64,000 bases of DNA, from the NCBI GenBank assembly GCA_964187785.1, contig OZ076409.1:72356001-72420000 (forward strand), given 5' to 3'. A program made the position numbers and the translations under genes. This DNA comes from Amphiscolops sp. MND2022 (lineage: Eukaryota). Shown piece by piece: positions 1,201 to 25,658 of this stretch (position 1 is the stretch's first letter; each line of letters opens with the position of its first letter). The notes under the pieces are model-generated. The model was not told the origin of the DNA, ran no database searches, and was given only the letters and a program-made list of their open reading frames with translations.

Positions 1201-1248
1201 GTGATAGCCTTTTCAGTTGGCCTTGTGTCAACTTGGGAAGGCTATCAC
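1201..1248 (+). other. Long bulged hairpin, GATAGCC class (representative; in A and C units)
   Basis: GTGATAGCCTT...AAGGCTATCAC outer stem plus an AGTTG/CAACT inner stem. Confidence 0.8.
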
Positions 1249-1573
1249 ATCAAAAAACCATCAACAAAAATAATTTTTGTTTATTGGATCTTACAGTCGA
1301 TACTTTTTTTCGTGATTCTATACTACCGTTAGTATATTTCATCAGGTCACCTTACGATTGCATTCAGTCTTTGATAAAAACCTATGAACTCAAAGTCACA
1401 TTTATATATTTTTTGGCCAAAAAAACATCAAAAATATCTAAAATATATAAAATAGAGTCTTTAACATTTTTACGTTTCAAGTTTTTGCCGTTATTAAGCC
1501 AATCAACTTCCTACAGCCACGCTCTCTGTCATACTGTACAACGCCACATAGTGTTGCGACGTGCACAGTCTGT

Positions 1574-1593
1574 GGGCATGCCGAGGCATGCCC
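1574..1593. promoter_or_regulatory. Conserved 20-bp palindrome matching the p53-family response element consensus (representative; one per unit end)
   Basis: GGGCATGCCG|AGGCATGCCC matches RRRCWWGYYY x2 at 19 of 20 positions with zero spacer. It is present before all 25 junctions. Function is not demonstrated. Confidence 0.45.
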
Positions 1594-1615
1594 TTCGACG
1601 ACGTATGCCGAATAC

Positions 1616-1645
1616 CGCGGGCCTACGCCCGCGCTCCCCGGCTAG
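1616..1645 (+). other. Helitron-type 3' terminus: GC-rich hairpin plus CTAG (representative)
   Basis: A 7-bp stem lies 8 nt upstream of CTAG. Canonical Helitrons end in a subterminal hairpin followed by CTRR. Confidence 0.7.
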
Positions 1646-3634
1646 GTGGGCGGGGGTAATTCCCCAACAAAAATTACGGCCGGCGGGTTGGGTCCTGCCG
1701 GACGTTCAAATAGCGCGAAGCATCTAGTAGAAAACAAGGAGTCCTGAAACAGCGATTTTAAAATTGAACCGTTAGAATTTGGTTTTAGATTGCAAGCGGC
1801 CCTAAAATCCCCATACGAATGGAAGTTCCTGCTGGCGTTAAGCGATTGAAATAATATATAAAAAGTTATGGCCCATTTTTGGGTCACCGAGAAGGTCAAA
1901 ATGAAGAAAATTTTAACTAAGTTGCTGATAACTCAAAATGTGTTAATTTTTGGACTTTGACTGTGAAACAAGCTTGGAACCTTCATTTCGTGGCTGTGGC
2001 ATTGCACTGAACACAAAAGATGTAAAGTTTTCACATTTTTTGAAAATTCGACATTTTTGAATTTTTTTTCACTACTATCAGTACACTATATGTCAAAAAC
2101 ACCTCTGAAAAATTTTTTTATTTGCTTAAATTTAGAAACCTTGGTATCCATGGTTTCCGTCAGTACCTACTCGCTGCCAAACACTCAACAGTTTGCATCC
2201 AATGTGAAAATAAAATTTTTTTCGAGGTCTTAGGTGTTTCACAAGGATTTCTCAACTTAGTATCAATTTACAAATTGGTCATTTTGAACACATTATTTTC
2301 ATCGAAGCGTGTCATATACCGCCCTAATGCTCACGAACGGGCCTACTGGCAACGTTGGAACCATTTATAGTAATAAAAAGTTTTAAAAAAATTTTTTCAC
2401 CCCGTCTTCAGTCATTTTACACACTTTCGGAACTTAACTTAGAAAAATTTCAACCAAAAACCCATTTTTTGTCAAGTCGAAAATTCAAATTCAGCTTTTT
2501 AAGCAAAATAAATAAATCTGACATAACCACTGGGGCCCATGAAACTCAAAACCACGATTGAGACTGGTATCAATGGCTCCAATAACATATGAGTCGCGAT
2601 AAGACGCTATTTTGAGCAAAACATCTCAATTGAGGTAAAGATCTCGCAAGCCAGCGATCACTGTGAAATGTGATTTCATCAAAAATTTACTCTTTTTTGT
2701 CAATCACTATGTGCACAGAATGCGTAGGGTGCGTTTCAGCACTATAATGAGGTTTTTGAAGGCATCGAGTTGCTCAAGGGGTGGTATGAGACATTTTTGT
2801 CCCATATACTACTGTAGTTTCCAAAATTTTTACCCCAACATCTGAAAATACAAACTTGACAAAATACTTTCAACTACTTTATTCAAAGGTTACAATATAG
2901 ATGAACACTGTGGTTGATAAGAAACTTTCATCTCTTTCGTTTTCGGAAATATTTCCGTTCGCATGTGTTACATTCATAGCAGAAAAAAAAATCGAAACTG
3001 AAAAATACGCTATTTTGCTGATATAGAATCGCAATGATTGTGCCTAAAAACTCTTTAAACACTTCTAACGCAACCTTACGCACCCAAAATGATCGAAAAT
3101 GCTATTCACAATGGTGACATGTGCTCTTTCTACAATCCTGGCTGGACAAGGTTTGCATATTTTTCAAGTACCTGTCAGCTAAATCTTGTGATAGCCTTTT
3201 CAGTTGGCCTTGTGTCAACTTGGGAAGGCTATCACATCAAAAAATCATCAACAAAAATAATTTTTGTTTATTGGATCTTACAGTCGATACTTTTTTTCGT
3301 GATTCTATACTACCGTTAGTATATTTCATCAGGTCACCTTACGATTGCATTCAGTCTTTGATAAAAACCTATGAACTCAAAGTCACATTTATATATTTTT
3401 TTGCCAGAAAATAACATCAAAAATATCTAAAATATATAAAATAGAGTCTTTAACATTTTTACGTTTCAAGTTTTTGCCGTTATTAGGCCAATCAACGTCC
3501 TAGAGCCACATCCTGCCACATACTGTACAACGCCACATAGTGTTGCGACGTGCACAGTCTGTGGGCATGCCGAGGCATGCCCTTCGACGACGTATGCCGA
3601 ATACCGCGGGCCTACGCCCGCGCTCCCCGGCTAG
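1646..3634 (+). mobile_element. Unit 2, family A (1989 bp)
   Basis: Starts GTGGGCGGGGGTAATTCCCC and ends hairpin+CTAG. Appears identical to unit 7 (offset 14781; the ORF-track translations are identical). Confidence 0.8.
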
Positions 3635-4901
3635 GTGGCCGCGTCTTTTAGATGGACTTTTAGCCCTGAGGCGCGGGTAGGGTCCTGCGCCGAAACAGAG
3701 AAATTATACTACTGCACATAGCCCCGGTCCAGACACGATCTCGAAAACTGACCGTTAGAAATTCCTGAAAATTTGCATGTGGCCCCCAATTGGCGAGCAA
3801 TGAAAAAGTGTAGGAGGTCGTTTTTCCCAAATTCCACTGTGAGAGGAGATATATGAAAAAAACGGACCCCAAAATGACGAAATTTTCACTTTTTGACCAA
3901 AAATGTGACATTATCTCCTCAGACAAGGCTCGGAGCAAAATTTGACAGAACCCAAACCTGCAGCAGACTGTTAGAGCAGTGCACACAGTAAGTTTCAAGG
4001 AAATCGGATAATCACATGTGGAGAAATTGACGTTCTTCCGGCGAAATTTTTCGCAAATGCAGTCTATCTCTGCCGTTTTTTGCCCAAAATTTTTCCGAGA
4101 CCCTCTCCTAAAGGCCTCCCCTGGCCCAATTTCTTCCCAAAAAAACCATTTGGCCCTAAATACGAGGTTTCAGCGTTCCAGCATTCCCCAGTGAAAAGTT
4201 ATGGGACTTAGAAATTTTTCAAATATTTTCAAATTTTTTCTAAAAAAGTTCAGGCCGCCCAAAGTGAAGAAACTTCCACACAACTAGTATTGCAAGTGAA
4301 TGCATGTGGAAAGCCCTGCACTTGACCAGAAAAATGCCGTTTAGAACGTCTTTTTATCTTTACTTGATGTTGACTTATGATCTTTTGAGTAACGTATAAC
4401 ACGTGATCACAGTAGTGAAAATCCTAATCAATAATTTTCAAACAATAACGCATGAAAAGAATCTGGAAAGGTTCCGATGGGTCAGTCGGGATGTCTGAAG
4501 CATGTGTACATTCCCGTAGTGTATAGCGGATGTTTTGGGACTTATTAGAAATTGTGATATATTTTATAAAAGTCTTTGTTTCTCATAGAATCTCATGCAG
4601 TTGAGTACATTCCATCTCCCTCTCAGGGGAGATGTGAATGTACGTTTGCCAAATGCCTTGTAAAGTTCACATGTTTGATGGACTTAACTAAAAAAACAAG
4701 TGTGAGTTGCGTTTGCCGAATCGCTACAGCAAAAAATACTAAAACTTTAGTCAGATTGAATGGTTTTTGTCTTTAGTGTTTCTTCTTGTATAGCCGACTT
4801 CCACATCCAATTATCAACGCCCACCGTCCGTAGGCATGCCGAGGCATGCCTTTCGACGACGTATGCCAAATACCCAATGCCACACAGTCTTTCCCCGCTA
4901 G
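3635..4901 (+). mobile_element. Unit 3, short family S1 (1267 bp)
   Basis: Starts GTGGCCGCG. Stem GGCGC/GCGCC flanks GGGTAGGGTCCT. GTACATTC hairpin at 4605-4643, A/T variant palindrome at 4832-4851, ends GCTAG. Confidence 0.75.
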
Positions 4902-6893
4902 GTGCGGGGGGGAAACCCCTTCCTTTATCTTGGAGGATTCGGGTAGGGTCCTGAATCCGAGTTCAGTGCCGCCAGCTCTCAGTAGAAATCTGGGCATTTT
5001 TTTGCGATCTCGTGATCTAACCATAGGATTTTAAAGTTGGAGCGGCCCCCACCAGATTTTCCAAAGTTATTCGCCCCCCACCGGGTTCCAGCGTGATTGA
5101 AATATTTTGTCGGGGTACACGGGCGACCGTTAGGGGTCATTTTAGGGGTAAAATTTATATAATGTCGCATAACTTTTTTCCTGTTGGATTAAAACTTTGG
5201 GACCCTGCTAAAAGTTTCTTGACCGTGTTGCGGGGGCTCCGGAGGTCCAAACCAAATTTTTCTATCTTGAAGCTATCTCCAAGTACCCCCCCGCCCAAAC
5301 CGTTATTTTTCCGGAAACGCAGGTTTTTGACCCGGAAGGAGTCGTCTGAGCGCGGGGTCGTTAGGTGATGTATTGGGGACGGCCTTGAGACGAAGCGGGG
5401 GACATGTAATTTGCCGACCCCAGTTTACCCCCCGGACGGAAAATGACCGTTATATGAGCGGGATAAATGCCCCCCTCCACGTTTTACCGCTATTTCCGAT
5501 GGGAAGGAGTGGGAGTAACGCTTCGGGTGCCATATATCAAAAGTAGGTTTAGACAAGGACCTATCGGAAACATGTGGTTTGGGACCCCCTGACCCAACCC
5601 GTTAGCGGGAAATGGGGCTTCAGCCTCCTTTTTTTACAGTTAAAACCGGAAAATGGGCATTGAGGGGTAAATATCTCGTGAACGCGTGGAGCAATCGTGT
5701 CCATCACTACTACAAGGTTTCATACCCATGATATGGTGCCTTCAGGGGGGCAAACAGATTTCCGCTATCTATCACCGTTACGGACTTGGCCCCCCAGCCT
5801 AACCGCTATGTGACCGGAAATGTCACTTTTTGAGCCCAAAGGGTCAGTCCGAGCGCGGCATGGTTAGCTAACTTATTGTAGTACTCAATGAGACGAGTTG
5901 GGGGATATAGTTTCAGTCACCCCCCGTTACCCCTTGTGACCGGAAATGACCGTTATGTGGGTAAAAATGCGATTTTTGTACTTTTTGAAGGGCATTTAGG
6001 TGCGGAAGGAATGGTAAAAGGTGCTTGGACACTATATGATGTAATGGAGGTCGTGAGGAGAGCATTCGGAAGTAACCGTTACGTTGACCCCAAAGTCCCC
6101 CTGGTACCGTTAACAACCGGAAATGGCCAAATTTTGTGTTTATAGGGTACAAATGTTTGGTATTTTATGGATAAAAGTACCTGGAAGGTGTTTTAAAGGC
6201 CTCCAGAAGTGAACATAGTCATGAAACTTTGTGGGGGGTAACGGTATATAGCACCGGAAGTCCAAACCGTTAGTTACAGAATAGGTTTTTTGGTTTCAAA
6301 ATGTCTTTAGGCGTAGTTTTGTGGGTTGAATCGTCATAATATCAACTAATACGGACTTTTTTCGGAAATAAAATTTTTTCACATTAGTTTCAGGGACCTC
6401 CAATGTTTCAGTCAACATAACCGTTACATTTTGATAGCCTTTCAAGTTGGCCTGGTGTCAACTTGGAAGGGCTATCCTTCTAAAATCGTTAATCAAGAGT
6501 GTTTTTGGGTAGGTATATGTTGCATTAGTACCAATTAGAGCTTCATCAACAGTTTGCCAACGGCAAAAACGATGTCGTGATAATTCCGTTATAAGAATAT
6601 TAATTAACAAATTGTTTCCAAAGTTGATTTTTTCCATTCGAAATGTGTCCCAATGCCACCAAATTGAATAAAATAATAAATGGTATTGACTAAAACTAAA
6701 TAACATTGAAAAAGAAGCTCAACATTTTTAATAGGTCTCATAATGGAAGCTGAAACCTCACGTTTTAACTTAATTAACGTCAACGCCACATACTTTACAT
6801 CAACGTCCGCCGTCTGTGGGCATGCCGAGGCATGCCCTTCGACGACGTATACCAATTACATATATATCTACACCCACCCGCGGTAGCAGCTAG
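4902..6893 (+). mobile_element. Unit 4, GC-richer family C (1992 bp)
   Basis: Starts GTGCGGGGGGGAAACCCC. Body is homologous to units 17, 23 and 25 but not recognisably to family A. GATAGCC hairpin at 6433-6476, palindrome at 6818-6837. Confidence 0.75.
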
Positions 6894-9130
6894 GTGGGCG
6901 GGGGTAATTCCCCAACAAAAAAATCGGCCGGCGGGTCGGGTCCTGCCGGCCGTCCAAAATCAAAATCCTCCTAGTAGAAAACGGCATGTCAAACGAGCTA
7001 TTTTTTTATTTAACCATACGAATTTCACCATTTTTTGCATGCGGCCCTGAAATGGCCATACGAGACGAAGTTCCTGCTGACGTTTTGCGATGTAAATGTT
7101 TTATAAAAAGTTATGGCCTATTTGTCATTCACCTAGAAGGGTAAAATGAGGAAAATTTTAGCAAAGTCGCTGATAACTCAAAATGTGTTAATTTTTGGAC
7201 TTTGACTGTGAAACAAGCTTGGAACCTTCATTTCGTGGCTGGGGCATTGGACTGAACACAAAAGATGTAAAGTTTTTACGTTTTTTGAAAATTCGACATT
7301 TTTGAAATTTTTTTCACTACTATCAGTACCCCATATGTCAAAAACACCTCAGAAAAAAATTTTTATTTGCTTTAAATTGGAAACCTTGGTATCCATGGTT
7401 TCTGTCGGGACCTACTCGCAGCCAAACACTTAACAGTTTGCATCCAATGTGAAAAGAAAATTTTTTTCGGGGTCATAAGCGTTTCACAAGGATTTCTCAA
7501 CTTAGTATCTATTTACAAATTGGTCATTTTGAACACATTATTTTCATCGAAGCGTGTCAGATACCACCCTAATGCTCACGAATGGGCCTACTGGCAACGT
7601 TGGAACCATTTTTAGTAATAGAAAGTATTAAAAAAATATTTTCACCCGGTCTTCAGTCATTTTTCAGACATTCGGTACTTAACTTAGAAAAATTTCGCAT
7701 CAAAAACCCATATTTGGTAGGGTCGAAATTTGAAATTCAGTTTTTTATGCAAAATTATTAACTCTGACGTAACCAGTGGAGCCCATGATACTCAAAATCA
7801 CGATTGGGACTGGTATCAGTGGCTCCAATAACATATGAGCCGCGATAAGACGTTATTCAGAGCAAACGCTCTAAATCGAAGTAAACATCTCTGAAGCCTG
7901 GGATCACAGTGAAATGTGATATCACCAAAAGTTTACTCTTTTTTGTCAATCACTATGTACACAGAGTGCGTAGGGTGAGTTTCAGGACTATAATGAGGTT
8001 TTTGAAGTAATCGCGCTGCTCAAGGGGTGGTATGAGACTATTTTTTCCCATATACTACTACATTTCCATAAATTTGCAGTCCATTGTCTTGGAAAGATAA
8101 CTTCACAAAAACAATTTTTGTACTCTATTCAGTTATTAGAATAAAGTTGAACACTGTGGTTGATCAGAAATGCTCAATTCTTTTGGTTTTTAAAAAAATT
8201 CCTTCGCATTCGTTACATTTGTGGAAGGAAGGTTATCAGTAGCTCCAAAAAAAAACGAAATTTAGCACGAACAGACATGCAACGATGCAAAGCAAAAACG
8301 TTTTTACAACTTCCGACGTCATTATTTTACCCAAGAAGATTGAAAATATCATTCGCAATGCTGTCATTCGCTATATATACGATCGCGGTCAATTTACAAA
8401 CATTTAGATTTCATTGTTCTGCTTGAAAACCAATTTTTGTCAGGTCGAAATTTTAAATTTTGCCTGGGGAGCAATACCCTTCACGCTGAAGTAAACAGTG
8501 GGGCCCAAGTTACTCAAAAACAAGAAAGAGACTGCTACAATATGTCCTAATAACATATGGACCACGATAGTACACTTTTCACACAAAAAACTCTCATCCG
8601 AAGTAAATATGTTGAAAGCTTTTAATCACCGTGAGAAGTGATTTCATCAAAAAGTAACTCTTTTTTGTCAATCACTATTTACACAGAATTTGTAAAGTTA
8701 GTTTGAGTCATGAAATGAGGCTTTACCGTAATATGGGTTGCTCAAGGTGTTATATAAGACAAAAACTTCCTCTTTTCTACTAGCTTCTTCAAATATTTCA
8801 ACCCTTTGTCACAATAAGTTAATATTCAAAATATCTTTGAAATGTATCTTTATGTTGGGGTGAAGTCTAAGAACAATAACTATGATCGAAGAATGCTAGT
8901 ACTGGTGTTTGAACCATGTCCGGATGAACAAATCACAAAATCATCAAAAAATTGTTCCCTTTTTTGGTTATTTTGGCAGTACTAAAAATGTTAGCTGATA
9001 AATAATTTTTTCGATGGCACCATTGGATTCCTCTCAAAAAGTTGGTTATATGACCTGTGTAATAACCCCGTATCTTTTCAATTTAAATATATTTAAAAAG
9101 CCAACTATTTTGACCAAAATCCTAAAAATC

Positions 9131-10405
9131 ATACCATTTCCTAAAAATTTTCAAATGCACCCCATTTGACGTATAAGATAAGCACAGAAAACTATCATTT
9201 ACCGATCAACTCTACTCCCATTGTAGATTATTAGAATTTTGTTTAGAATGAATTTTGATGGATATTAAAAAAATTTTGAACCCTCCAAAAATGGGCCAAA
9301 ATTACACGAAAAAATTGACCTTAAAATACCAAAATGTCAAAAAATCATCAAAACCACGGCTTCTTGGGGTTCTATCAACTCCGCGTGGTCCACAGAGTAT
9401 GCTAAAACAGGATTTACCCGTTTTTGAGCAATATGTGAAAAAGCCGACATTTTTGGGAAAGAAAAACATACCATTTCCTAAAAAAATTCAAATGCACGTA
9501 ATTTGCCGTATTAGAATAGCACAGAAAACTATCACATACCAATCAACTCTACTTTCATTGCAGATGAACAGAATTTTGTTTAGAATAAATTTTACCGGAT
9601 AATAAAAAAATTTGAATCCTTCAAAAATGGGCCAAAATTACACGAAAAAATGGACCTTAAAAATTTAAAATGTCAAAAAATCGTCAAAACAACAGCTTCT
9701 TGGGGTTCTATCAACTCCACGAGGTCCACAGAGTATGCTAAAACAGGTTTTACCCGTTTTTGAGCAATATGTGAAAAAGCCGACATTTTTGGGAGAGAAA
9801 AACATACCATTTCCTAAAAAAATTCAAATGCACGCCATTTGCCGTATGAAAATAGCACAGAAAACTATCACATACCAATCAACTCTACTTTCATTGCAGA
9901 TGAACAGAATTTTGTTTAGAATAAATTTTACCGGATAATAAAAAAATTAGATTCCTTCTAAAATGGGCCAAAATTACACGAAAAAAAGGACCTTAAAATT
10001 TTAAAATGTCAAAAAATCATCAAAACCACGGCTTCTTGGGGTTCTATCAACTCCACGTGGTCCACAGAGTATGCTTTATAGAGAGAATAAAACCCGGTTT
10101 TACCCATCTTTGAGCAAAATGTGAAAATACCGACATTTTTGGAAAAGAAAAAAATACCATTTTCTAATAAATTTCAAATGCACGCCATTTGCTGTATGAG
10201 AATAACACAGAAAGCTGTCACATACCGATCAACTCTACTTCCATTGTAGATTATCAGAAGTTTGTTTTGAATAAATTTTGATGGTTAATAAAAATAATTG
10301 AATCCATCAAAAATGGGCCAAAATTACACGAAAAAATTGACCTTAAAATATCAAAATGTCAAAAAATCATCAAAACCACAGTTTCTTGGCGTTCTATCAA
10401 CTCCA
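9131..10405 (+). repeat. Internal ~336-bp tandem repeat, ~3.8 copies
   Basis: ATACCATTT anchor at 9131, 9468, 9804 and 10154. The third copy carries a ~14-bp insertion near 10076 that unit 15 lacks. End coordinate is approximate. Confidence 0.9.
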
Positions 10406-10688
10406 TATGATACCAAACCAGGTACTGCCAATCGTTTGAGTTATAATAAAAAAACGTCTTTTTTGGCAAGAATTCCATACCATAAATAATGTTCCATATA
10501 AGAAGCGAATCATTTCAGATATATACCCTGTTCATTTTTTTAATATTACCGATTATTAATTTAATAGATGTTTTGAATGTGAGCTTCCTAAAAGGTTCAG
10601 GTGTGATGTTACGTAAAGAGAACCTTAGTTTCATCGAAATCTCAATTGAATATGTCCAATCCTAACCATCAGATAACAAGAAACACTT

Positions 10689-10731
10689 AAGTACATTCCA
10701 TCTCCCCATCGGGGGAGATGAGAATGTACTT
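10689..10731 (+). other. Long bulged hairpin, GTACATTC class (representative; in L, S1 and S2 units)
   Basis: AAGTACATTC-CATCTCCCC-[ATCG]-GGGGAGATG-(A)-GAATGTACTT. Confidence 0.8.
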
Positions 10732-11663
10732 TCGAGAAGCCAAATACGTCCAACATTCAAACTTTTGTAACTTTGTATGTAACTCCTGAAACGAAGAAGG
10801 AATAAAATTGTTTCTGGTACATACATGAGTCTTTACTTCAGCTTCTATTTCTGCTGAACAAAACCATTCGACTCTTTTGCCGGAGTTAAGATCGATTGTA
10901 TTACCCAGTGAACAAAGGCATGACTGAAAACGTTTACTACTTTGTTCATAATTTTCCGGCCTTCCGAAATGATGAAACGTCCACATAACTAAGATAGCAA
11001 GTGAATGACTGCGAAATGCACCTTATTAGATGAGGTAAATAACGTGTAAAACTCTCCTTTATCCTAACATGAGGTTGAGTAATGATCATTTGAGAATAGT
11101 TTGATATGTGAATACAATAGTATAAAACAAGTACATTTTATATGAATAACGCCGTGGAAAGCGTTCAGAAAGGACAGTAGGCTTGTTTGGAACATGTATG
11201 TGTGGTGTCCCTTGGTGGCGTTCGCTTAGTGTATATGTCGAGGGGTATTCGAGTTGTTATGATAGAATTTACACACAAGTCTTTTGTTTTTTGGTTTTTT
11301 TAAAATGTCGTTAAGTACCTGCATTCTATCCCCTTCTCAGAGATGACGTGAAGTTACGTTTGCTAAATAAATGTCATCGAAAGATCACACTCCCGACGAA
11401 ATTAACTATCTTAACACGTGTTTAGAATTTTAAATAAACAACCGTATAAGATTATTATATTTCATTGAGTTTGATGAAGTCTTTTGTTCTTCTCACTACT
11501 ATTTCAACCAATACACATATCCGTTACCATATCACATGTCTCCATTAGTACAACGCCACATAGCGTTCCGACGCCCACAGTCTGTGGGCATGCCGAGGCA
11601 TGCCCTTCGACGACGTATGGCAAATGGAGCCATGCCCGCCGTCTTTACGGCGGTAGCGGCTAG

Positions 11664-14600
11664 GTGGGCGGGGGTAATTCCCCAACTAAAAAATCGGCCG
11701 GCGGGTAGGGTCCTGCCGGCCGTCCAAAATCAAAAATATACTAGTAGAAAACGGCCGGTCAAACGAGCTATTTTTTTATTTAACCGTTAGAATTTGGGTT
11801 TAGATTGCATGCGGCCATGAAATGGCCATACGAATCGAAGTTCCTGCTGACGTTTTGCGATTGAAACACTTTATAAAAAGTTATGGCCAATTTGTCAGTC
11901 ACCTAGAAGGGCAAAATGAGGAAAATTTTAACAAAGTCGCTAATAACTCAAAATGTGTTATTTTTTGGACTTTGACTGTGAAACAAGCTTGGAACCTTCA
12001 TTTCGTGGCTGTGGCATTGCACTGAACGCAAAAGATGTAAAGTTTTTACATTTTTTGAAAATTTGACATTTTTGAAATTTTTTTCACTACTATCAGTACC
12101 ATATATGTCAAAAACACCTCAGAAAAAAAATTTTATTTGCTTTAACTTGGAAACCTTGGTATCCATGGTTTCTGTCGGAACCTACTCGCAACCAAACAAC
12201 CAACAGTTTGCATCCAATGTGAAAATAAAAAATTTTTCTGGGTCATAAGCGTTTCACAAGGATTTCTCAACTTAGTATTAATTTACAAAATGGTCATCTT
12301 GAACACAATATTTTCATCGAGGCTTGTCGGCTATAGCCTTAATGTTCTAGAACGGTCCCACTGGCAACGTAGGAACCATTTATAGTAATAGAAAGTTTAA
12401 AAAATATATTTTCACCCTGTCTTCAGTCATTTTTCAGTCATTCGGAACTTAACTTAGAAAAATTTCGACCAAAATACCCATTTTTTGACAGATCGAAAAT
12501 TCAAATTCAACTTTTTAAGCAAAATTAGTAACTCTGACGTAACCAGTGGGACTCATGATACTCAAAAACACGATTGGGACTGGTACCAATGGCTCCAATA
12601 TCATATGAGCCGCGATAAGACGTTATTTTGAGCAATACGTCTCAATTGAGGGAAACATCTCGCAAGCCTGGGATCACAGTTAAAAGTGATTTCGTCAAAA
12701 ATTTACTCTTTTTCGTCAATCACTATGTACACAGAGTGCGTAGGGTGAGTTTCAGCACTATAATGCGGTTTTTGAAGGAATCGGTCTGCTCAAGGGGTGG
12801 TATGAGACATTTTTTTTGCATGTAGTACTATATTTCTCAAAACTTTTAGCCCAATATCTCGAAAAGCTCACTTCGCAAATTACTTTCAGTTACTCTATTC
12901 GAAGCTTAGAATATATATGAACAGTGTGGTTGATCAGAAACTCTTGACTATTTTGTTTTTGGAAAAAAACTGCCTTGCATGTGTTACATTAGTGGCAGGA
13001 AAAATACCAGTAGCTCCAAAAATCACAATTTTGGACGGACAGACCTGCAATGATGCAAAGCAAAAACGTTTCAACAACTTCTGGCGCCACTTTTTTAACC
13101 CAAGAGGTTCGAAATTACTATTAACAATGCTGACATTCGCTATAAATAAGATCGAGGTCAATTTACTAACACTTAGGTTATACATTTATATCTGAGAAAC
13201 CATTCTTTGTCAGGTCGCAATTTTAAATTTAGTTTGGGAAGCAATACTTTTCACTCTGAAGCAAACCGTTGGGCCCAAATTACTCAAAAACTACAAAAAG
13301 ACTGTCACCATATGCCCTAATAGCATATGAGATTCGACCGTATGTTTTTAACACAAAAACTCTCATCCGAAGTAAACATGTTGAAAGCCTTGAATCACCG
13401 TGAGAAATGATTTCATCAAAAAATATTCCTTTTTCGTCAATCTTTATCTACACAGAACACGTTGTGTCATTTTCAGCCGTGAAATGAGCTTCTACCGTAA
13501 TATGGGTTGCTCAAGGTGTTGTATAAGACAAAAACTTCCTCTTTTCTACTATCTTCTTCAAATATTTCAACCCTTTGTCACAAGAAGTTAATATTCAAAA
13601 TCTCTTTGAAATGTTTCTTTAGGTTGGGGTGAAGTGTTAGAACAATAATTATGATCGAAGAATGATAGTATTGGTGTTTGGACCATGTCCGGATGAACAA
13701 ATTGCAAAATCATGAAAAATTTCTTACCATTTTTGGTCATATTGTCAGTACTAAAAATGTTAGCTGAAAAAGAATTTTTTTGATGGCACCATTGGATTCC
13801 TCTCAAAAAGTTGGTTATATGACCTGTGTAATAACCCCGTATCTTTTCAATTTAAATATATTTAAAAAGCCAACTATTTTGACCAAAATACTAAAAATCA
13901 TACCATTTCCTAAAAATTTTCAAATGCACCCCATTTGACGTATAAGAATAGCACAGAAAACTATCACATACCGATCGACTCTACTTCCATTGTAGATTCC
14001 CAGAATTTTGTTTAGAACAATTTTTGACGGATGCAAAAAAATTTAAACCCTCCAAAAAAGGGCCAAAATTACACGAAAAAATTGACCTTAAAATTTTAAA
14101 ATGTCGAAAAATCATCAAAACCACAGCTTCTTGGGGTTCTATCAACTCCACGTGGTCCACAGAGTATGTTAAAACAAGTTTTACCCGTATTTGAGCAATA
14201 TGTGAAAAAGCCGACTTTTTTGGGAATGAAAAACATACCATTTCCTAAAAAATTTCAAACGCACCCCATTTGACGTATAAGAATAGCACAGAAAACTATC
14301 ACATACCGATCGACTCTACTTCCATTGTAGGTTACCAGAATCTTGTTTAGAACAATTGTTGACGGATGCAAAAAAAAATTTAAACCCTCCAAAAATGGGC
14401 CAAAATTACACGAAAAAATTGACCTTAAATTTTTAAAATGTCAAAAAATCATCAAAACCACAGCTTCTTGGGGTTCTATCAACTCCACGTGGTCCACAGA
14501 GTATGCTAAAACAGGTTTTACATGTTTCTGAGCTATATGTGAAAAAACCGACATTTTGGGGAAGAAAAACATACCATTTCTTAAAAAATTTCAAATGCAC

Positions 14601-16426: not shown

Positions 16427-18415
16427 GTGGGCGGGGGTAATTCCCCAACAAAAATTACGGCCGGCGGGTTGGGTCCTGCCGGACGTTCAAATAGCGCGAA
16501 GCATCTAGTAGAAAACAAGGAGTCCTGAAACAGCGATTTTAAAATTGAACCGTTAGAATTTGGTTTTAGATTGCAAGCGGCCCTAAAATCCCCATACGAA
16601 TGGAAGTTCCTGCTGGCGTTAAGCGATTGAAATAATATATAAAAAGTTATGGCCCATTTTTGGGTCACCGAGAAGGTCAAAATGAAGAAAATTTTAACTA
16701 AGTTGCTGATAACTCAAAATGTGTTAATTTTTGGACTTTGACTGTGAAACAAGCTTGGAACCTTCATTTCGTGGCTGTGGCATTGCACTGAACACAAAAG
16801 ATGTAAAGTTTTCACATTTTTTGAAAATTCGACATTTTTGAATTTTTTTTCACTACTATCAGTACACTATATGTCAAAAACACCTCTGAAAAATTTTTTT
16901 ATTTGCTTAAATTTAGAAACCTTGGTATCCATGGTTTCCGTCAGTACCTACTCGCTGCCAAACACTCAACAGTTTGCATCCAATGTGAAAATAAAATTTT
17001 TTTCGAGGTCTTAGGTGTTTCACAAGGATTTCTCAACTTAGTATCAATTTACAAATTGGTCATTTTGAACACATTATTTTCATCGAAGCGTGTCATATAC
17101 CGCCCTAATGCTCACGAACGGGCCTACTGGCAACGTTGGAACCATTTATAGTAATAAAAAGTTTTAAAAAAATTTTTTCACCCCGTCTTCAGTCATTTTA
17201 CACACTTTCGGAACTTAACTTAGAAAAATTTCAACCAAAAACCCATTTTTTGTCAAGTCGAAAATTCAAATTCAGCTTTTTAAGCAAAATAAATAAATCT
17301 GACATAACCACTGGGGCCCATGAAACTCAAAACCACGATTGAGACTGGTATCAATGGCTCCAATAACATATGAGTCGCGATAAGACGCTATTTTGAGCAA
17401 AACATCTCAATTGAGGTAAAGATCTCGCAAGCCAGCGATCACTGTGAAATGTGATTTCATCAAAAATTTACTCTTTTTTGTCAATCACTATGTGCACAGA
17501 ATGCGTAGGGTGCGTTTCAGCACTATAATGAGGTTTTTGAAGGCATCGAGTTGCTCAAGGGGTGGTATGAGACATTTTTGTCCCATATACTACTGTAGTT
17601 TCCAAAATTTTTACCCCAACATCTGAAAATACAAACTTGACAAAATACTTTCAACTACTTTATTCAAAGGTTACAATATAGATGAACACTGTGGTTGATA
17701 AGAAACTTTCATCTCTTTCGTTTTCGGAAATATTTCCGTTCGCATGTGTTACATTCATAGCAGAAAAAAAAATCGAAACTGAAAAATACGCTATTTTGCT
17801 GATATAGAATCGCAATGATTGTGCCTAAAAACTCTTTAAACACTTCTAACGCAACCTTACGCACCCAAAATGATCGAAAATGCTATTCACAATGGTGACA
17901 TGTGCTCTTTCTACAATCCTGGCTGGACAAGGTTTGCATATTTTTCAAGTACCTGTCAGCTAAATCTTGTGATAGCCTTTTCAGTTGGCCTTGTGTCAAC
18001 TTGGGAAGGCTATCACATCAAAAAATCATCAACAAAAATAATTTTTGTTTATTGGATCTTACAGTCGATACTTTTTTTCGTGATTCTATACTACCGTTAG
18101 TATATTTCATCAGGTCACCTTACGATTGCATTCAGTCTTTGATAAAAACCTATGAACTCAAAGTCACATTTATATATTTTTTTGCCAGAAAATAACATCA
18201 AAAATATCTAAAATATATAAAATAGAGTCTTTAACATTTTTACGTTTCAAGTTTTTGCCGTTATTAGGCCAATCAACGTCCTAGAGCCACATCCTGCCAC
18301 ATACTGTACAACGCCACATAGTGTTGCGACGTGCACAGTCTGTGGGCATGCCGAGGCATGCCCTTCGACGACGTATGCCGAATACCGCGGGCCTACGCCC
18401 GCGCTCCCCGGCTAG
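16427..18415 (+). mobile_element. Unit 7, family A (1989 bp)
   Basis: Apparent exact copy of unit 2, with different neighbours on both sides. Confidence 0.8.
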
Positions 18416-20402
18416 GTGGGCGGGGGTAATTCCCCAACAAAAATTACGGCCGGCGGGTTGGGTCCTGCCGGACGTCAAATAGTGTGAAACATCCAGTAGG
18501 AAACGGCGACATAAATCAGCGATTTTAAAATTTAACCGTTAGAATTCGGACTTGGAGTGCATGCGGCCCCAAAATGCCCATACGAATCGAAGTTCCTGCT
18601 GACGTTAAGCGATAAAAACATTTTATAAAAAGTTATGGCCCATTTTACGTTCACCTATAAGGGTAAAATGAGGAAAATTTTTACAAAGTCGCTGATAACT
18701 CAAAATACATTAATTTTTGGACTTTGACTGTGAAACAAGCTTAGAACCTTCATTTCGTGGCTGTAGCATTGCACTGAACACAAAAGATGTAAAGTTTTTA
18801 CAATTTTTGAAAATTCGACATTTTTGATTTTTTTTTCACTACTATCAGTACACTATATGTCAAAAACACCTCTGAAAAAAATTATTATTTGCTTAAAATT
18901 GGAAACCTTGGTATCCATGGTTTCTGTCGGAACCTACTCGCTGCCAAACACCCAACAGTTTGCATCCAATGTGAAATTAAAATTTTTTTCGAGGTCTTAG
19001 GTGTTTCACAAGGATTTCTCAACTTAGTTTCAATTTACAAATTGGTCATATTGAACACAATATTTTCATCGAAGCTTGTCAGATACCGCCCTAATGCTCA
19101 CTAATGGGCCTACTCGCAACGTTGGAACCGTTTATAGTAATAGAAAGTTTAAAAAAAATATTTTCACCCGGTCTTCAGTCATTTTTCAGTCATTCGGAAC
19201 TTAACTTAGAAAAATTTCGACCAAAATACCAATTTTTTGTCAGGTCGAAAAATCAAATTCAGATTTTTAAGCAAAATTATTTACTCTGACGTAACTAGTG
19301 GGCCCCATGATACTCAAAAACACGATTGGGACCGGTACCAAGGGCTCCAATTTCATATGAGCCGCGATAAGACGTTATTTTGAGCAACACGTCTCAATAG
19401 AGGTAAACATCTCGCAAGCCTGGGGTCACAGTGAAAAGTAATTTCATCAAGAATTTACTCATTTTTGTCAATCACTATGTGCACAGAGTGCGTAGGGTGC
19501 GTTTCAGCACTTTAATGAGGTTTTTGAAGGCATCGGTCTGCTCAAGGGGTGGTATGAGACATTTTTTTCCTGTATACTACTGTATTTTCCAAAACTTTTA
19601 GCCAATTATCTGGAAAAACTAACTTGACAAAATACTTTCAACTACTTTATTCAAAGGTTACAATATAGATGAACACTGTGGTTGATCAGAAACTTTCATC
19701 TCTTTCGTTTTCCGAAATTTTTCCCTTCGCATGTGTAACATTCGTAGCAGAAAAAAAAATCGAAACTGAAAAATACGCAATTTTGCTAATATAGAATCGC
19801 AATGATTGTGCCTAAAAACTCTTTAAACACTTCTAACGCAACCTTACGCACCCAAATTGATCGAATATGTTATTCACAATGGTGACATGTTCTCTTTCTA
19901 CGATCCTGGCTGGACAAGGTTTGCATATTTTTCAAGTACCTGTCAGCTAAATCTTGTGATAGCCTTTTCAGTTGGCCTTGTGTCAACTTGGGAAGGCTAT
20001 CACATCAAAAAACCATCAATAAAAATAATTTTTGTTTATTGGATCTTACAGTCGAAACTTTTTTTCGTGATTCTATACTACCGTTAGTATATTTCATCAG
20101 GTCACCTTACGATTGCATTCAGTCTTTGATAAAAACCTATGAACTCAAAGTCACATTTATATATTTTTTTGCCAGAAAATAACATCAAAAATATCTAAAA
20201 TATATCAAATAGAGTCTTTAACATTTTTACGTTTCAAGTTTTTGCCGTTATTAGGCCAATCAACGTCCTAGAGCCACATCCTGCCACATACTGTACAACG
20301 CCACATAGTGTTGCGACGTGCACAGTCTGTGGGCATGCCGAGGCATGCCCTTCGACGACGTAAGCCGAATACCGCGGGCCTACGCCCGCGCTCCCCGGCT
20401 AG
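18416..20402 (+). mobile_element. Unit 8, family A (1987 bp)
   Basis: Family A body with the standard termini. Its 5' variant is shared with unit 10. Confidence 0.78.
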
Positions 20403-21681
20403 GTGGTCGTTAGCATGGGATTTTCTTTATGAGCGTAGTCCACTTTTTTTAGGCCGGGGTAGGGTCCCGGGCCGTTACCAATTTCTTACGGAGGAAAAAT
20501 GTGAAAATCTGCGAGTTTAAAAAATTGGCCCGTACGATTTGGCTGAAAATTGGCATACAGCATCGTCTTGGTAAACAAATGACTTTGTCCTAGTGACATT
20601 TTGCCCAGAAAATTCAAAAAGTTGGTCAAATTGAAAATTTTTTGACCGTCTAAGGCTAAAATTTGACTTTTTCGCTTTTTTTGGTCAATTTCCTCAGAAC
20701 TGGTTGATTTTGGTGAAGTAAGTCATAAGAGGTTATAAGGTCTGCAAATAGCCATCAATTGGCTTGCATAATCAGATTTTGTCAAAAGTGTTTAGTTTTT
20801 TCAAAATTTCACACTTTTTTTTCATTTCAGTGTTTTTTGATACAATTTATTGAATTTTTACTAAGTTCCACTAAATATTTTTAAAATGTTTTTAAAAAAC
20901 CTTTTTTTGCACGTTTTTGATGTTTTTTGCTCTCCCATATAGGTTTTCGCATACGTGGAACCTGAATCTGACAACGAAATAATTTTATTCCGCAGTTCAA
21001 CTTACGCCATTTTTAATAGTGAAAAATCACTCATTTTCAATCTAACGAGTGAAAATATCAGAATTTAAAAACCTAAAGTTGAGTTTAAGGCGACTTACAG
21101 GTAGAAACAAATGCTCAGAAACAAACTGATTTCTTGTATTAGCTAAAGAAAGCCTTTAAAATTCTTTTTACTTTCTTTAAATCAAAATTCGACACTTTTC
21201 ATGAAATTTGTCAGTGGAAAAAATTTATCATTTTTTTAAATTTAAAACTTGCTTTGTTGGTCATTTCCGTTAGTCATTAGTAGCTGTGTAATGCTCCAAA
21301 GCCTTTCAAGTTCTTTTGACCCTATTTGAAAATTTTTGATACTGCATAATCAATCCGAGAGAACGAAACAGTTGTGTACATTCCATCTCCCTCTTGGGGG
21401 AGATGAGAATGTACTTCCTAAAGTCCAGGTACTACAGATCATATTTGGTTTTATGCGACGCCCTCTATGCTAGTGCATATAAATACAAGTTGTTTGGCTG
21501 GATTTTGCTTCTGACTTGACGTATACTGTACGTTTGGTACTGACAATACCCATCATTTACATAACAAACGTCAACGCCACATACCCTCACCAACGTCCAT
21601 AGTCCGTAGGCATGCCGAGGCATGCCTTTCGACGACGCGCGCCAAACACAAGCGCGCCCGCACTTTTGCGGTAGCGGCTAG
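20403..21681 (+). mobile_element. Unit 9, short family S2 (1279 bp)
   Basis: Starts GTGGTCG with a unique, very AT-rich body. Has the GGCCGGGG-TAGGGT-CCCGGGCC stem-loop, a GTACATTC hairpin at 21376-21414, the A/T variant palindrome at 21608-21627 and terminal hairpin CCGCA-CTTT-TGCGG. Confidence 0.75.
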
Positions 21682-23671
21682 GTGGGCGGGGGTAATTCCC
21701 CAACAAAAATTACGGCCGGCGGGTTGGGTCCTGCCGGACGTCAAATAGTGTGAAACATCCAGTAGGAAACGGCGACATAAATCAGCGATTTTAAAATTTA
21801 ACCGTTAGAATTCGGACTTGGAGTGCATGCGGCCCCAAAATGCCCATACGAATCGAAGTTCCTGCTGACGTTAAGCGATAAAAACACTTTATAAAAAGTT
21901 ATGGCCCATTTTACGTTCACTTAGAGAGGTAAAATGAGGAAAATTTTAACAAAGTCGCTGATAACTCAAAATGTGTTAATTTTTGGCTTTTGACTGTGAA
22001 ACAAGCTTAGAACCTTCATTTCGTGGCTGTGGCATTGCACTGAACACAAAAGCTGTAAAGTTTTCACATTTTTTGAAAATTCGACATTTTTGAAATTTTT
22101 TTCACTACTATCAGTACCCCATATGTCAAAAACACCTCAGAAAAAAAAATTTATTTGCTTTAAATTGGAAACCTTGGTATCCATGGTTTCTGTCGGAACC
22201 TACTCGCAGCCAAACACCCAACAGTTTGCATCCAATGTGAAATAAAAAATTTTTTCGAGGTCATAAGCGTTTCACAAGGTTTTCATGATTTAGTATTAAA
22301 TTACATAGTGGTCATTTTAAACATAAAATTTTGGTCCAGGCATGTCGGATATAGTCTGAATGCTCACGAACGGTCCTACTGGCAACGTAGGAACCATTTA
22401 TAGTAATAAAAAGTATTAAAAATTTTTTTTCACCCGGTCTTCAGTCATTTTTCAGACATTCGGAACTTAACTTAGAAAATTTTCGAACCAAATACCCATT
22501 TTTTGTCAGGTCGAAAATTGAAATTCAGCTATTAAAGCAAAATATTTTACTCTGACGTAACCAGTGGGGTCCATGATACTCAAAAATACGATTGGGACTG
22601 GTACCAATGGCTCCTATATCATATGAGCCGCGATAAGACGTTATTTTGAGCAATATGTCTCAATTGAGGTAAACATCTCGCAAGCCTGGGATCACAGTGA
22701 AATGTAATTTCATCAAAAAATTACTCATTTTTGTCAATCACTATGTGCATAGAGTGGGTAGGGTGAGTTCCAACACTATAATGAGGTTTTTGAAGGCATC
22801 GGGTTGCTCAAGGGGTGGTATGAGTCATTACTTTCCTATATACAACTGTATTTTCAAAAACTTTTAGCCCATTATCTGGAAAAACTAACTTGACAAAATA
22901 CTTTCAATTACTTCATTCAAAGGTTACAATATAAATGAACACTGTGGTTGATCAGAAACTTTCATCTCTTTCGTTTTCCGAAATAACTCCTTTCAAATGT
23001 GTTACATTTGTAGCAGGAAAAAAAACTGAAACTAAAAAATACGCGATTTTGCTGAGATAGAATCGCAATGGTTGCGCCTAAAATCTCTTTAAATACTTCT
23101 AACGCGACCTTACGGACCCAAAATGATTGAAAATGCCATTCACAATGCTGACATGTGCTCTTTCTACGATCCTGGCTGGACAAGTTTTGCATTTTTTTCA
23201 AGTACCTGTTAACTGAACATTGTGATAGCCTTTCAAGTTGGCCTTGTGTCAACTTGGGAAGGCTGTCACTTCAAAAAACTGTCAACAAAAATACCATTTG
23301 TTTATAGGATATTGCTGTCGATGCTTCACTTCGTGATTCGATCATGTCGTGAGTTCCTTCCATCAGGTCAGCTAACATTTGGATTCAGTGTTGGATAAGA
23401 ACCTATGATTTTCATGACAATTTTAGTTCTTTTTTGCTAACAAAAAGTACGAATAAATGATATAAAACATATTTGTGACCTCTAGGAAGTTTAACTTTAC
23501 CTTTATTTACCGTTACCATCGCCACCCACCCCCTACGACCTCGCAGTGTCCTCATTACAACGCCACATAGTGTAGCGACGCCCACAGTCTGTGGGCATGC
23601 CGAGGCATGCCCTTCGACGACGTATGGCAAATATAGCGTTAGCCCGCGGTCACTACCGCGGTAGCAGCTAG
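21682..23671 (+). mobile_element. Unit 10, family A subfamily (1990 bp)
   Basis: Body resembles units 24 and 26. Terminal hairpin CCGCGGT-CACT-ACCGCGG. Confidence 0.78.
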
Positions 23672-25658
23672 GTGGGCGGGGGTAATTCCCCAACAAAAAA
23701 ATCGGCCGGCGGGTCGGGTCCTGCCGGCCGTCCAAAATCAAAATCCTCCTAGTAGAAAACGGCATGTCAAACGAGCTATTTTTTTATTTAACCATACGAA
23801 TTTCACCATTTTTTGCATGCGGCCCTGAAATGGCCATACGAGACGAAGTTCCTGCTGACGTTTTGCGATGTAAATGTTTTATAAAAAGTTATGGCCGATT
23901 TGTCATTCACCTAGAAGGGTAAAATGAGGAAAATTTTAACAAAGTCGCTGATAACTCAAAATGTGGTAATTTTTGGACTTTGACTGTGAAACAAGCTTGG
24001 AACCTTCATTTCGTGGCTGGGGCATTGGACTGAACACAAAAGATGTAAAGTTTTTACGTTTTTTGAAAATTCGACATTTTTGAAATTTTTTTCACTACTA
24101 TCAGTACCCCATATGTCAAAAACACCTCAGAAAAATATTTTTATTTGCTTTAAATTGGAAACCTTGGTATCCATGGTTTCTGTCGGAACCTACTCGCAGC
24201 CAAACACCCAACAGTTTGCATCCAATGTGAAAATAAAAATTTTTTCGGGGTCATAAGCGTTTCACAAGGATTTCTCAACTTAGTATTAATTTACAAAATG
24301 GTCATTTTGAACATAATATTTTCATCGAGGCTTGTCGGCTATAGCCTTAATGTTCTAGAACGGTCCCACTGGCAACGTAGCAACCATTTATAGTAATATA
24401 AAAGGTTAAAAAATTTTTTTCACCCGGTCTTCAGTCATTTTTCAGACATTCCGAACATAACTTAGAAAATTTTCGACCCAAATACCCATTTTTTGTCAGG
24501 TCGAAAATTAAAATTCAGCTATTAAAGCAAAATTATTTACTCTGACGTAACCAGTGGGGCCCATGATACTCAAAAACACCATTGGCACTGGTACCAATGG
24601 CTCCAATAACATATGAGTCGCGATAAGACGTTATTTTGAGCAATACGTCTCAATTGAGGTAAAGATCTCGCAAGCCAGCGATCACTGTGAAATGTAAATT
24701 CATTAAAAATTTACTCATTTTCGTCAATCACCATGTGCACAGAGTGCGTAGGGTGAGTTCCAGCACTATAATGAGGTTTTTGAAGGCATCGGGTTGCTCA
24801 AGGGGTGGTATGAGACATTTTTTTCCTATATACTACTGTATTTTCCAATATTTTTAGCCCAATATCTGGAAATACAAACTTGACAAAATACTTTCAACTA
24901 CTTTATTCAAAGGTTACAATATAGATGAACACTGTGGTTGATCAGAAACTTTCATCTCTTTCGTTTTCCGAAATATTTCCCTTCACATGTGTTATATTTT
25001 TAGCAGAATAAAAAATCGAAACTGAAATATACGCTATTTTGCTAATATAGAATCGCAATGATTGTGCCTAAAAACTCTTTAAACAATTCTAACGCAACCT
25101 TACGCACCCGAAATGATCGAAAATGCTATTCACAATTGTGACATGTGCTCTTTCTACGATCCTGGCTGGACAAGGTTTGCATATTTTTCAAGTACCTGTC
25201 TGCTGAATCTTGTGATAGCCTTTTAAGTTGGCCTTGTGTCAACTTGGGAAGGCTATCACTTCAAACAACCATCAACAAAAATAATTTTTGTTTATTGGAT
25301 ATTACAGTTGATTCCTTTTTTCGTGATTCTATATTACCGTTAGTATATTCCATGAGGTCACCTTACGATTGCATTGAGACTTTGATAAAAACCTATGAAC
25401 TCAAAGTCACATTTATATATTTTTTTGCCCAAAAAAATCATCAAAAACATCTATAATATATAAAATAGAGTCTTTAACATTTTTACGTTTCAAGTTTCTG
25501 CCGTTATTAAGCCAATCAACTTCCTACAGCCACGCTCTCTGTCATTCTGTACAACGCCACATAGTGTTGCGACGTGCACGGTCTGTGGGCATGCCGAGGC
25601 ATGCCCTTCGACGACGTATGCCGAATACCGCGGGCCTACGCCCGCGCTCCCCGGCTAG
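23672..25658 (+). mobile_element. Unit 11, family A (1987 bp)
   Basis: Standard termini and family A body. Confidence 0.78.

Follow-up and report, generated by a model that had tools for sequence, protein, structure and literature searches.

Every unit that comes after a junction in the head-to-tail array filling the window (the whole stretch of 64,000 nucleotides that was analysed) possesses a short hairpin near its 5' end. This hairpin, found in 25 of 25 such units, is confirmed as real, non-random and locked in position. Regarding its role, the chances are about even that it signals the left end of a Helitron-like element, folded on the plus strand in single-stranded form, and that this element is inserted at its own junctions.

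Units, junctions and right ends of the array

The window (1-64000, plus strand) is one polar head-to-tail array, having 24 whole units and two pieces cut by its edges. The units, from 1.3 to 4.8 kb in length, are non-coding, belong to several families and are delimited by the 25 plus-strand occurrences of the sequence GCTAGGTG. Family A has 12 whole copies of 1981-1990 bp, starting with u01 (1646-3634, 1989 bp). The five copies of family L (4749-4770 bp), among them u04 (6894-11663) with an internal tandem repeat of 336 bp, have their 5' 1.3-1.5 kb in common with A. Family B comprises three copies of 1971-1993 bp, namely u03 (4902-6893), whose body consists of decayed repeats of approximately 160-170 bp, and those at 56628-58598 and 60586-62578. 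Besides these, u02 (3635-4901, 1267 bp) forms a family of its own, with an internal hairpin of type II at 4605-4643, u08 (20403-21681) has 1279 bp, u15 (36384-38377, 1994 bp) joins an A-like body to its own ends, and u16 (38378-41167, 2790 bp) is related to B; all of them are read on the plus strand. Another internal hairpin, the imperfect type I of 44 nt (3190-3233, plus strand), precedes the end of the unit by 441-461 nt in A, B and u15, and by 579 nt in u16.

No protein gene was recognised in the window, with no relevant Pfam match in 33 scanned frames (32 chosen from 67 stop-to-stop frames of at least 60 aa, taking one copy per family, and one more). A match to Flu_PB2_6th (E 7.4e-6) at 40109-40534 of the minus strand was set aside as chance, as the corresponding stretch in two B units has stops. 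No tRNA was found by ARAGORN in the window, and the scan for sigma-70 promoters and terminators stayed at chance level. The array units are an annotated family in neither Rfam nor Pfam.

All 25 joints, GCTAG/GTG, have one 8-bp core in one orientation, located at 1641-1648 for u01. From the likeness to the CTAG-3' end of Helitrons, the joint was placed between 1645 and 1646, the cut position within the core being assumed. Clustering of the 35 nt before and the 37 nt after the core resulted in 12 tail types and six head types in 17 combinations, where the tails go with the upstream unit and the heads with the downstream one; the A tail joins four heads, and the B head comes after three tails. 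Among the 117 junction pairs that are unlike on both sides, the common sequence has a median of 9 bp (minimum 8, maximum 22), and homology of about 9 bp is too little for ordinary recombination. This suggests that a site-specific enzyme made the joints within the 8-bp core, in which a target duplication may be hidden.

Terminal inverted repeats are absent, with flush matches of 2-7 of 12, which excludes a double-insertion tandem of a TIR (DDE) element. Such tandems and the R1 arrays, as treated in the accessible part of 10.1101/158386, are similar to the present array in having head-to-tail copies, a constant short separator and repeated insertion at the same site; however, the P/hobo-like tandems differ because the array lacks TIRs, and the R1 arrays because it has several families and neither 5' truncation nor an A-tail.

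As every unit in the window starts with GT and ends with AG, the units could also be taken for introns, with the AG/GT joints as recursive splice sites that remove the array from a host transcript. This is highly improbable, considering that the positions -18 to -5 have 4-7 pyrimidines of 14 in 11 of the 15 distinct tails, that a branch-like motif is present in two of those 15, and that a related metagenome contig of 1172 bp, L001, has GAG.

The units u01 and u06 (16427-18415) are 100% identical over 1989 bp and have different neighbours on both sides. Unit-wise copying would fit this identity, although recombination breakpoints in near-identical unit ends could mimic it. Recombination is also at work in the array, as seen by the internal mosaics: u10 and u13 are 98-100% alike in the first kb and then diverge, and u07 and u09 form a further case. 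The array also presents an AA/TT periodicity of about 10 bp and, internally, repeats with lengths of 336 and 503 bp, along with the decayed repeats of approximately 160-170 bp in the bodies.

The right end of the units is marked by an almost invariant 45-nt module, which in all 25 cases includes a p53-type palindrome 50-59 nt before the junction (1574-1593, plus strand, 20 bp, upstream of u01). The response-element consensus (RRRCWWGYYY twice, with a spacer of 0-13), as quoted in PMC3485254, is matched 25 times with one mismatch against 0.09 expected, the 25 matches counting as one observation, since all copies come from one ancestral site. The 3' module also has a pair of CAACGCC-like repeats, separated by about 20 nt. 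Closer to the joint, a perfect hairpin of 5-7 bp with a 4-nt loop, whose stems vary by tail type, is located 10-12 nt before the unit end (CTAG) in 20 of 25 junctions (1616-1633, plus strand, in the unit upstream of u01). It is absent from four tails and from L001, and a fifth tail has one 3 nt from the end.

Structure, covariation and spacing of the hairpin

In u01, the hairpin lies at 1677-1704 of the plus strand, with CCGGC-GGG and CCT-GCCGG on the two sides of the loop TTGGGT (1688-1693) and 1680-1687 paired with 1694-1701. The earlier note had claimed family-specific stems that always pair, and all those it named were found: CCGGC/GCCGG at 1677-1704, GGCGC/GCGCC at 3667-3694 (u02), GGATTC/GAATCC at 4933-4960 (u03) and near 56661, GGAATC/GATTCC at 60617-60644 (u24), GGTAGGG/CCCTACC at 38408-38435 (u16), and GGCC/GGCC at 20449-20476 (u08) and 36419-36446 (u15). 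The top is common to the units, GGG-T(A/C/T)GGG(T/G)-(C/T)C(C/T), with CCT or CCC on its 3' side, the loop being TAGGGG in u15 and of 7 nt, followed by CCC, in u16. The outer arms go by family, as CCGGC/GCCGG, GGCGC/GCGCC, GATTC/GAATC, GAATC/GATTC, GGCC/GGCC and GGTA/TACC.

The claim that these stems are fully covarying is too strong. Over seven arm types, the five outer positions form Watson-Crick pairs in 32 of 35 cases, and 2 of 5040 permutations are as high, a value to be read with about five independent lineages only (A/L, u02, B, u08 with u15, and u16), so that the best attainable permutation p is approximately 1/120. Meanwhile, the three top pairs are common to all units, the third being G.T in 22 of 25, and mismatches are present in u08 (G.G), in u15 (G.T one step out) and in nine A units (G.A near the base). 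Among control prokaryotic loci, 120 of about 2000 selected solely by the identical core pattern, none had five of five outer pairs and three had four of five.

In a gap-free alignment of 12 hairpins with 11 distinct rows, 94.3% of 88 cells were paired versus 68.6 +/- 3.4 in shuffles (0/500 as high), and five of the eight pairs were altered on both sides. The covariation value was 0.686, versus at most 0.250 in slid registers, in which pairing went down to 28-65%. Two of the five measures, both of the count type, were unexceptional (83/500 and 163/500), the folding z-scores of whole 80-mers were modest (-0.2 to -4.1), and the loop motif without a stem also occurs three times within A bodies. 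The B family presents covariation at its smallest scale, as the plus-strand hairpin of u24 differs from those of u03 and u22 by a single compensatory T-A to A-T change in an otherwise identical stem-loop, and the spacer ahead of the hairpin varies freely at constant length in the B heads. Covarying arms of this kind can also come from template-switch mutation without selection.

The distance from junction to loop is 42 nt in 21 units, and four single units have 41, 43, 46 and 57 nt, the last being u08, in agreement with the offset of 41-46 nt and its one exception reported before. The range of 41-46 nt is held across spacers of unrelated sequence, with the hairpin extending from about +32 to +59 of the unit. 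Between the junction and this hairpin, a small GGGG-n-CCCC hairpin (1653-1665, plus strand) had been seen in most units just past the start; as GGGG-n3/6-CCCC, it occurs in 22 of 25, the exceptions being u02, u08 and u15.

Hairpin and spacing are intact in 25 of 25 units, with turnover of the adjoining spacer and of the sequence from +60 to +120. Such conservation, the same in L001 and in the runs X2 and X3, and the heterologous joints with about 9 bp in common argue against a satellite-like block, for example centromeric, that is kept by unequal crossover or conversion and in which the hairpin would be a relic of ancestors that were once mobile, or a by-product of palindrome correction, with no present role. 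Mosaic units such as u10/u13, the AA/TT periodicity and the internal repeats (336 bp, 503 bp) are what such a block would present, and transposon tandem arrays and mosaics occur in centromeres according to the available part of 10.64898/2026.09.17.752431; even so, this explanation is judged quite unlikely.

Several other roles of the 5' sequences were rejected. The pairing of the unit start with CGCCCAC in the 3' module of the same unit, in the manner of attC or subterminal inverted repeats, has no covariation, and the pairing of loop with junction is lost in the TTGGGT and TCGGGT variants. A G-quadruplex is contradicted by u02 and u08, where the first G-runs are absent, and the reading of TAGGGT as a telomere repeat by most A and L copies, which deviate from it.

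Folding strand and the proposed left-end signal

The plus strand has a lower folding energy than the minus strand in ten of ten distinct hairpins, with both RNA and DNA parameters, the margin in u16 being small. A similar asymmetry is observed in internal hairpin I, whose non-Watson-Crick pairs on the plus strand are mostly G.T: tallied over six of eight variants (u16 and u22 were omitted, as indels shift the register), one variant or another departs from Watson-Crick pairing at six positions, of which five are G.T or T.G, one is C.T and none is A.C. Strand-biased mutation as the source of the G.T pairs is ruled out by the body substitutions, which have no strand bias (89:98, 97:87 and 83:94). 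Taken together, plus-strand folding and the G.T pattern indicate that the folded molecule is likely the single-stranded plus strand, as DNA or RNA. G.T, G.G and G.A are the more stable mismatches in DNA and do not separate it from RNA, and folding rich in G.T fits RNA at least equally with single-stranded DNA. The polarity assigned to the element rests on this folding bias, because CTAG is palindromic and the minus strand also has a hairpin before it, the GGGG/CCCC one, which ends about 11 nt upstream.

The hairpin could also act in RNA, in units transcribed from near the junction whose structured product is non-coding or is copied back into the junction by a site-specific retroelement enzyme, similar to R1-type tandem arrays, where a repeated target lies between the copies. 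This main alternative is doubtful, although pairing that is rich in G.T and confined to the plus strand, several hairpins per unit (including the 44-nt one) and the p53-type site 50-59 nt upstream of the junction would all be in line with it. R1 arrays, too, arise by repeated insertion at one site (10.1101/158386), and the telomeres of Drosophila have multi-family head-to-tail retroelement arrays, as far as the available parts of the sources tell. However, neither 5' truncation nor an A-tail occurs in the 25 junctions, all 25 heads being intact, G.G and G.A mismatches are tolerated as well as G.T, and the right end suits the geometry of Helitrons. In addition, no Rfam family reaches its gathering score across the 64 kb, the matches within 1500-12000 all having E > 1 (best 1.2), and the consensus of hammerhead, HDV-like, kink-turn and group II structures is unmatched by eye. 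The reRNA of a Fanzor was also rejected, as there is no such gene in the window and the mollusc Fanzor2 elements have TIRs and TSDs in the part of the source that was available; likewise, the available part of PMC10530073 gives no link to Fanzor. If the structure does act in RNA, the array would be one of unclassified structured RNA units.

HUH endonucleases recognise hairpins on single-stranded DNA near their cleavage sites, and the earlier note had taken the hairpin for a left-end recognition or origin structure of this kind. The end signal gains support from the fixed distance of 41-46 nt, its recurrence in the independent contig L001 and the precise joints; the HUH part would follow from the likeness of the right end to that of Helitrons and from Helraiser, and no HUH/RepHel gene was found among the 33 frames of the window compared with Pfam. 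For the reading as a Helitron-like left-end signal, an HUH transposase supplied in trans from elsewhere in the genome would bind the hairpin, recognising the loop and top by sequence and the outer stem by shape. It would then nick about 42 nt upstream of the loop, at AG/GTG, and stay on the 5' G, and the plus strand would be displaced as far as the right-end hairpin and CTAG, where the process would stop and result in a circle. Every array junction would be a nick site, so incoming units would be joined there, in an origin-into-origin step that is the least secure of the series. Origin-into-origin integration is known from HUH relaxases and the Rep protein of AAV. Targeting to junctions would give an array of one orientation and many families, with no target duplication and no truncation, and the mosaics within units would be made later by ordinary recombination.

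In another possible, though tentative, reading, a novel and dedicated enzyme acting on single-stranded DNA would read the hairpin at a set distance and add gene-less elements of several families, alike in having structured ends, one by one at the junction of these elements themselves, forming an integron-like eukaryotic cassette array with a p53-type site per joint. If so, that site could tie the array to DNA damage or germline control. If the partner is an HUH enzyme, it would represent a natural site-specific and scarless integrase, with kilobase cargo and a short signal defined by structure, as well as a route to long arrays, perhaps of centromeres or subtelomeres, whose phasing resembles that of nucleosomes. 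The hairpin together with the 3' module offers a sharp handle for locating the autonomous partner. In the open-access literature, no account was found of this array, of its exact motifs or of eukaryotic DNA elements that stack several families at their own junction, nor any paper that joins a p53 response element with a Helitron.

The precise joints at the 8-bp core could also be the work of a Crypton-type tyrosine or IS607-type serine recombinase moving cassettes as double-stranded circles, with the hairpin as an accessory protein-binding dyad or cruciform. According to the accessible parts of the sources, Cryptons lack TIRs, have terminal direct repeats of 4-6 bp and are proposed to pass through a circle (PMC3212892), and IS607 uses GG dinucleotides as crossover points, passing through a circle as well (PMC10711439). 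The GG of AGGTG, a weak indication of two letters, is present in all junctions and in L001, which keeps AGGTG and not CTAG, and the CAACGCC-like repeats of the 3' module could serve such an enzyme. Nevertheless, this is unlikely, as the 17 combinations have no constant inverted arms flanking the core (best 5-8 of 11, with shifting spacers), compared to the arms of 11-13 bp and core of 6-8 bp in Cryptons (PMC3212892, in part). A reaction on double-stranded DNA would also leave the strand-biased G.T pairing and the sequence-free stems unexplained, and neither a recombinase gene nor TnpA or TnpB-Fanzor was found in the 33 frames of the window.

Comparison with known elements and occurrence outside the window

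The published features of this section are those given in the available parts of the cited sources. Helitrons start with 5'-TC and terminate in CTRR-3', with a hairpin at 10-12 nt from that terminus (PMC5148889). In Helraiser, the right-end hairpin is located 11 nt upstream of the end, a swap of its stem keeps about 90% of the activity, a change of the loop abolishes the hairpin effect, and the end determinants are within the terminal 40 bp, which are enough for end cleavage (PMC4778049). Helitron insertion takes place between A and T, and Helraiser moves the plus strand and forms end-joined circles (PMC5876387). Head-to-tail junctions and tandem arrays of Helitrons are on record (PMC4778049, PMC5876387, PMC11417382), and non-autonomous Helitron-like elements often contain tandem repeats (PMC4067079, PMC13085455).

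The array resembles this HLE1 group in its asymmetric ends without TIR, its precise end-to-start joints, CTAG-3' at 25 of 25 junctions, which conforms to CTRR, and, at 20 of them, the short hairpin that precedes the 3' end by 10-12 nt. The free stem and constrained loop are also those of Helraiser, whose hairpin is at the right end, whereas that of the array is at the left and, from +32 to +59, lies partly beyond the terminal 40 bp. On the other hand, the units start with GTG in 25 of 25 cases and not with TC, the minus strand has its C without a preceding T, and there is no A/T target, as CTAG is followed by G at all junctions. The array also mixes unrelated families at a single exact core, a pattern not produced by rolling-circle concatemers made from one element.

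Compared to HLE2 and Helentrons (HINE, DINE-1), there are likenesses in the hairpins near both ends, the internal tandem repeats, and the palindrome that precedes the 3' end by about 50-60 nt and is followed by a stem-loop (PMC4067079, PMC5148889). However, the array lacks subterminal inverted repeats of 11-18 bp (the best matches being 8-9 of 12, at varying places among 12 unit types), a T/T target and T-runs at the ends. In anatomy, the units are like a non-autonomous rolling-circle element, but they belong neither to HLE1, defined by TC and A/T, nor to HLE2, defined by subterminal inverted repeats and T/T in the consulted parts of PMC11417382 and PMC4067079. A parallel may also be drawn to the telomere-capping Helitrons of Paramecium, which also have non-canonical ends (CCAA in their case), covarying end stem-loops, an absolute orientation bias, an inferred site-specific target and ORF-less copies filled with satellites (PMC13085455). 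These are inserted into telomeric repeats that flank each copy, in the part of the source available, whereas the array units abut with no telomeric tract.

Among prokaryotic systems, the Y1 elements of the IS200/IS605 family and their non-autonomous derivatives have two imperfect hairpins, one located downstream of the left cut and one some 10 nt upstream of the right cut, are strand-specific and make no target duplication. The array is similar in having a hairpin past the left joint, a second one some 10 nt ahead of the right joint, and strand specificity, but its left and right hairpins are unlike each other and its bodies are eukaryote-like and chromatin-phased. A guide tetranucleotide of the IS608 type was rejected, as the four bases 5' of the stem are not conserved. 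Replitrons have short direct terminal repeats, a Rep HUH transposase and, in C. reinhardtii, fuzzy right ends (PMC10288648, in part). In the window, the 8-bp core flanks every unit, which in an array looks the same as a plain end-start joint, and the joints are exact.

Outside the window, the element motifs had no matches in the collections of viral and prokaryotic genome contigs, and neither the junction nor a full stem was present at 12 viral loci that match the loop pattern. Along with the non-coding content, the AA/TT periodicity and the internal repeats, the lack of matches in these collections suggests a eukaryotic nuclear source. In the metagenome scan, L001 was the sole match, having the same 3' module, the junction GCGAGGTG, the small GGGG/CCCC hairpin and a stem of the u02 type, whose loop begins at 41 nt although the spacer ahead of it is unrelated. 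It ends with CGAG instead of CTAG and keeps AGGTG. Three public contig sets have pieces of the array, mostly 80-95% alike, indicating that it is not an assembly artefact of one sample; the runs listed with matches included none of RNA, a result that is neutral as to expression. In the runs X2 and X3, the sequence from 1639 or 1641 to 1705, which includes the junction core and the hairpin of u01, is present with no differences, and the next 72 nt are replaced. Moreover, X3 joins a tail akin to the u09/u13/u18 type to an A head, an order that is absent from the window.

Hairpins at the junctions and the p53-type element

The junctions, where the CTAG end of one unit meets the GTG start of the next, are roughly symmetric (window 1616-1665 and other junctions), having hairpins upstream of the CTAG end on both strands: the plus-strand hairpin stops 10-12 nt short of the end of CTAG, and the minus-strand one is smaller and ends about 11 nt ahead of CTAG. 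Some tails, the 3' ends of upstream units, carry an additional covarying hairpin directly 3' of TTCGACGAC (approximately window 11617-11636, 21638-21658 and 38334-38354), with the stems GTATGGC/GCCATGC and GCGCGC/GCGCGC, and other tails lack it. Every junction is preceded, by 50-59 nt, by a near-perfect p53-type response element with one mismatch (window 1574-1593 and 24 equivalent sites; 812-831 in L001, an independent metagenome contig of the same architecture), whose outermost pair is A-T instead of G-C in 4 of the 25 units, as well as in L001.

Stems and internal hairpins

GA directly borders the main 5' stem on both its 5' and 3' sides in three lineages, u02/L001, B and u16 (window 3667-3694, 4933-4960 and 38408-38435; L001 914-941), and may form tandem sheared G.A pairs there. 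The small hairpins of family B, just after the unit start, have GAAA/GTAA loops. Within the unit bodies, two kinds of hairpin of 40-50 nt are common to otherwise unrelated families, at a similar distance to the unit end: type I (window 1203-1246 and 3190-3233), where the wobble pairs are G.T only, on the plus strand, and type II (window 4605-4643). L001 has such an internal hairpin at 567-605.

Unit lengths and mosaic units

Families A, B and u15 are unrelated yet share a length of 1971-1994 bp, as u02 and u08, also unrelated, are alike at 1267 and 1279 bp; these common lengths suggest that unit size is under constraint. Two pairs are mosaic with internal breakpoints: u10/u13 (window 23672-25658 and 29631-31619), having about the first 1000 nt in common at 98-100%, and u07/u09 (window 18416-20402 and 21682-23671), sharing the first 200 nt.

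Repeats, and a protein match taken as chance

CCGTTA, a Myb-site-like sequence, is spaced by about 150-180 nt in u03, of family B (window 4902-6893; 12 on the plus strand versus 1 on the minus), and in u16 (38378-41167; 15 versus 0). Internal repeats measure 336 and 503 bp, each a multiple of roughly 168, and the AA/TT periodicity peaks near 10-10.5 bp. A 142-aa minus-strand frame in u16 (window 40109-40534) matches Pfam Flu_PB2_6th with an E-value of 7.4e-6, which was taken as chance; the related stretch of the B units is interrupted by stops.
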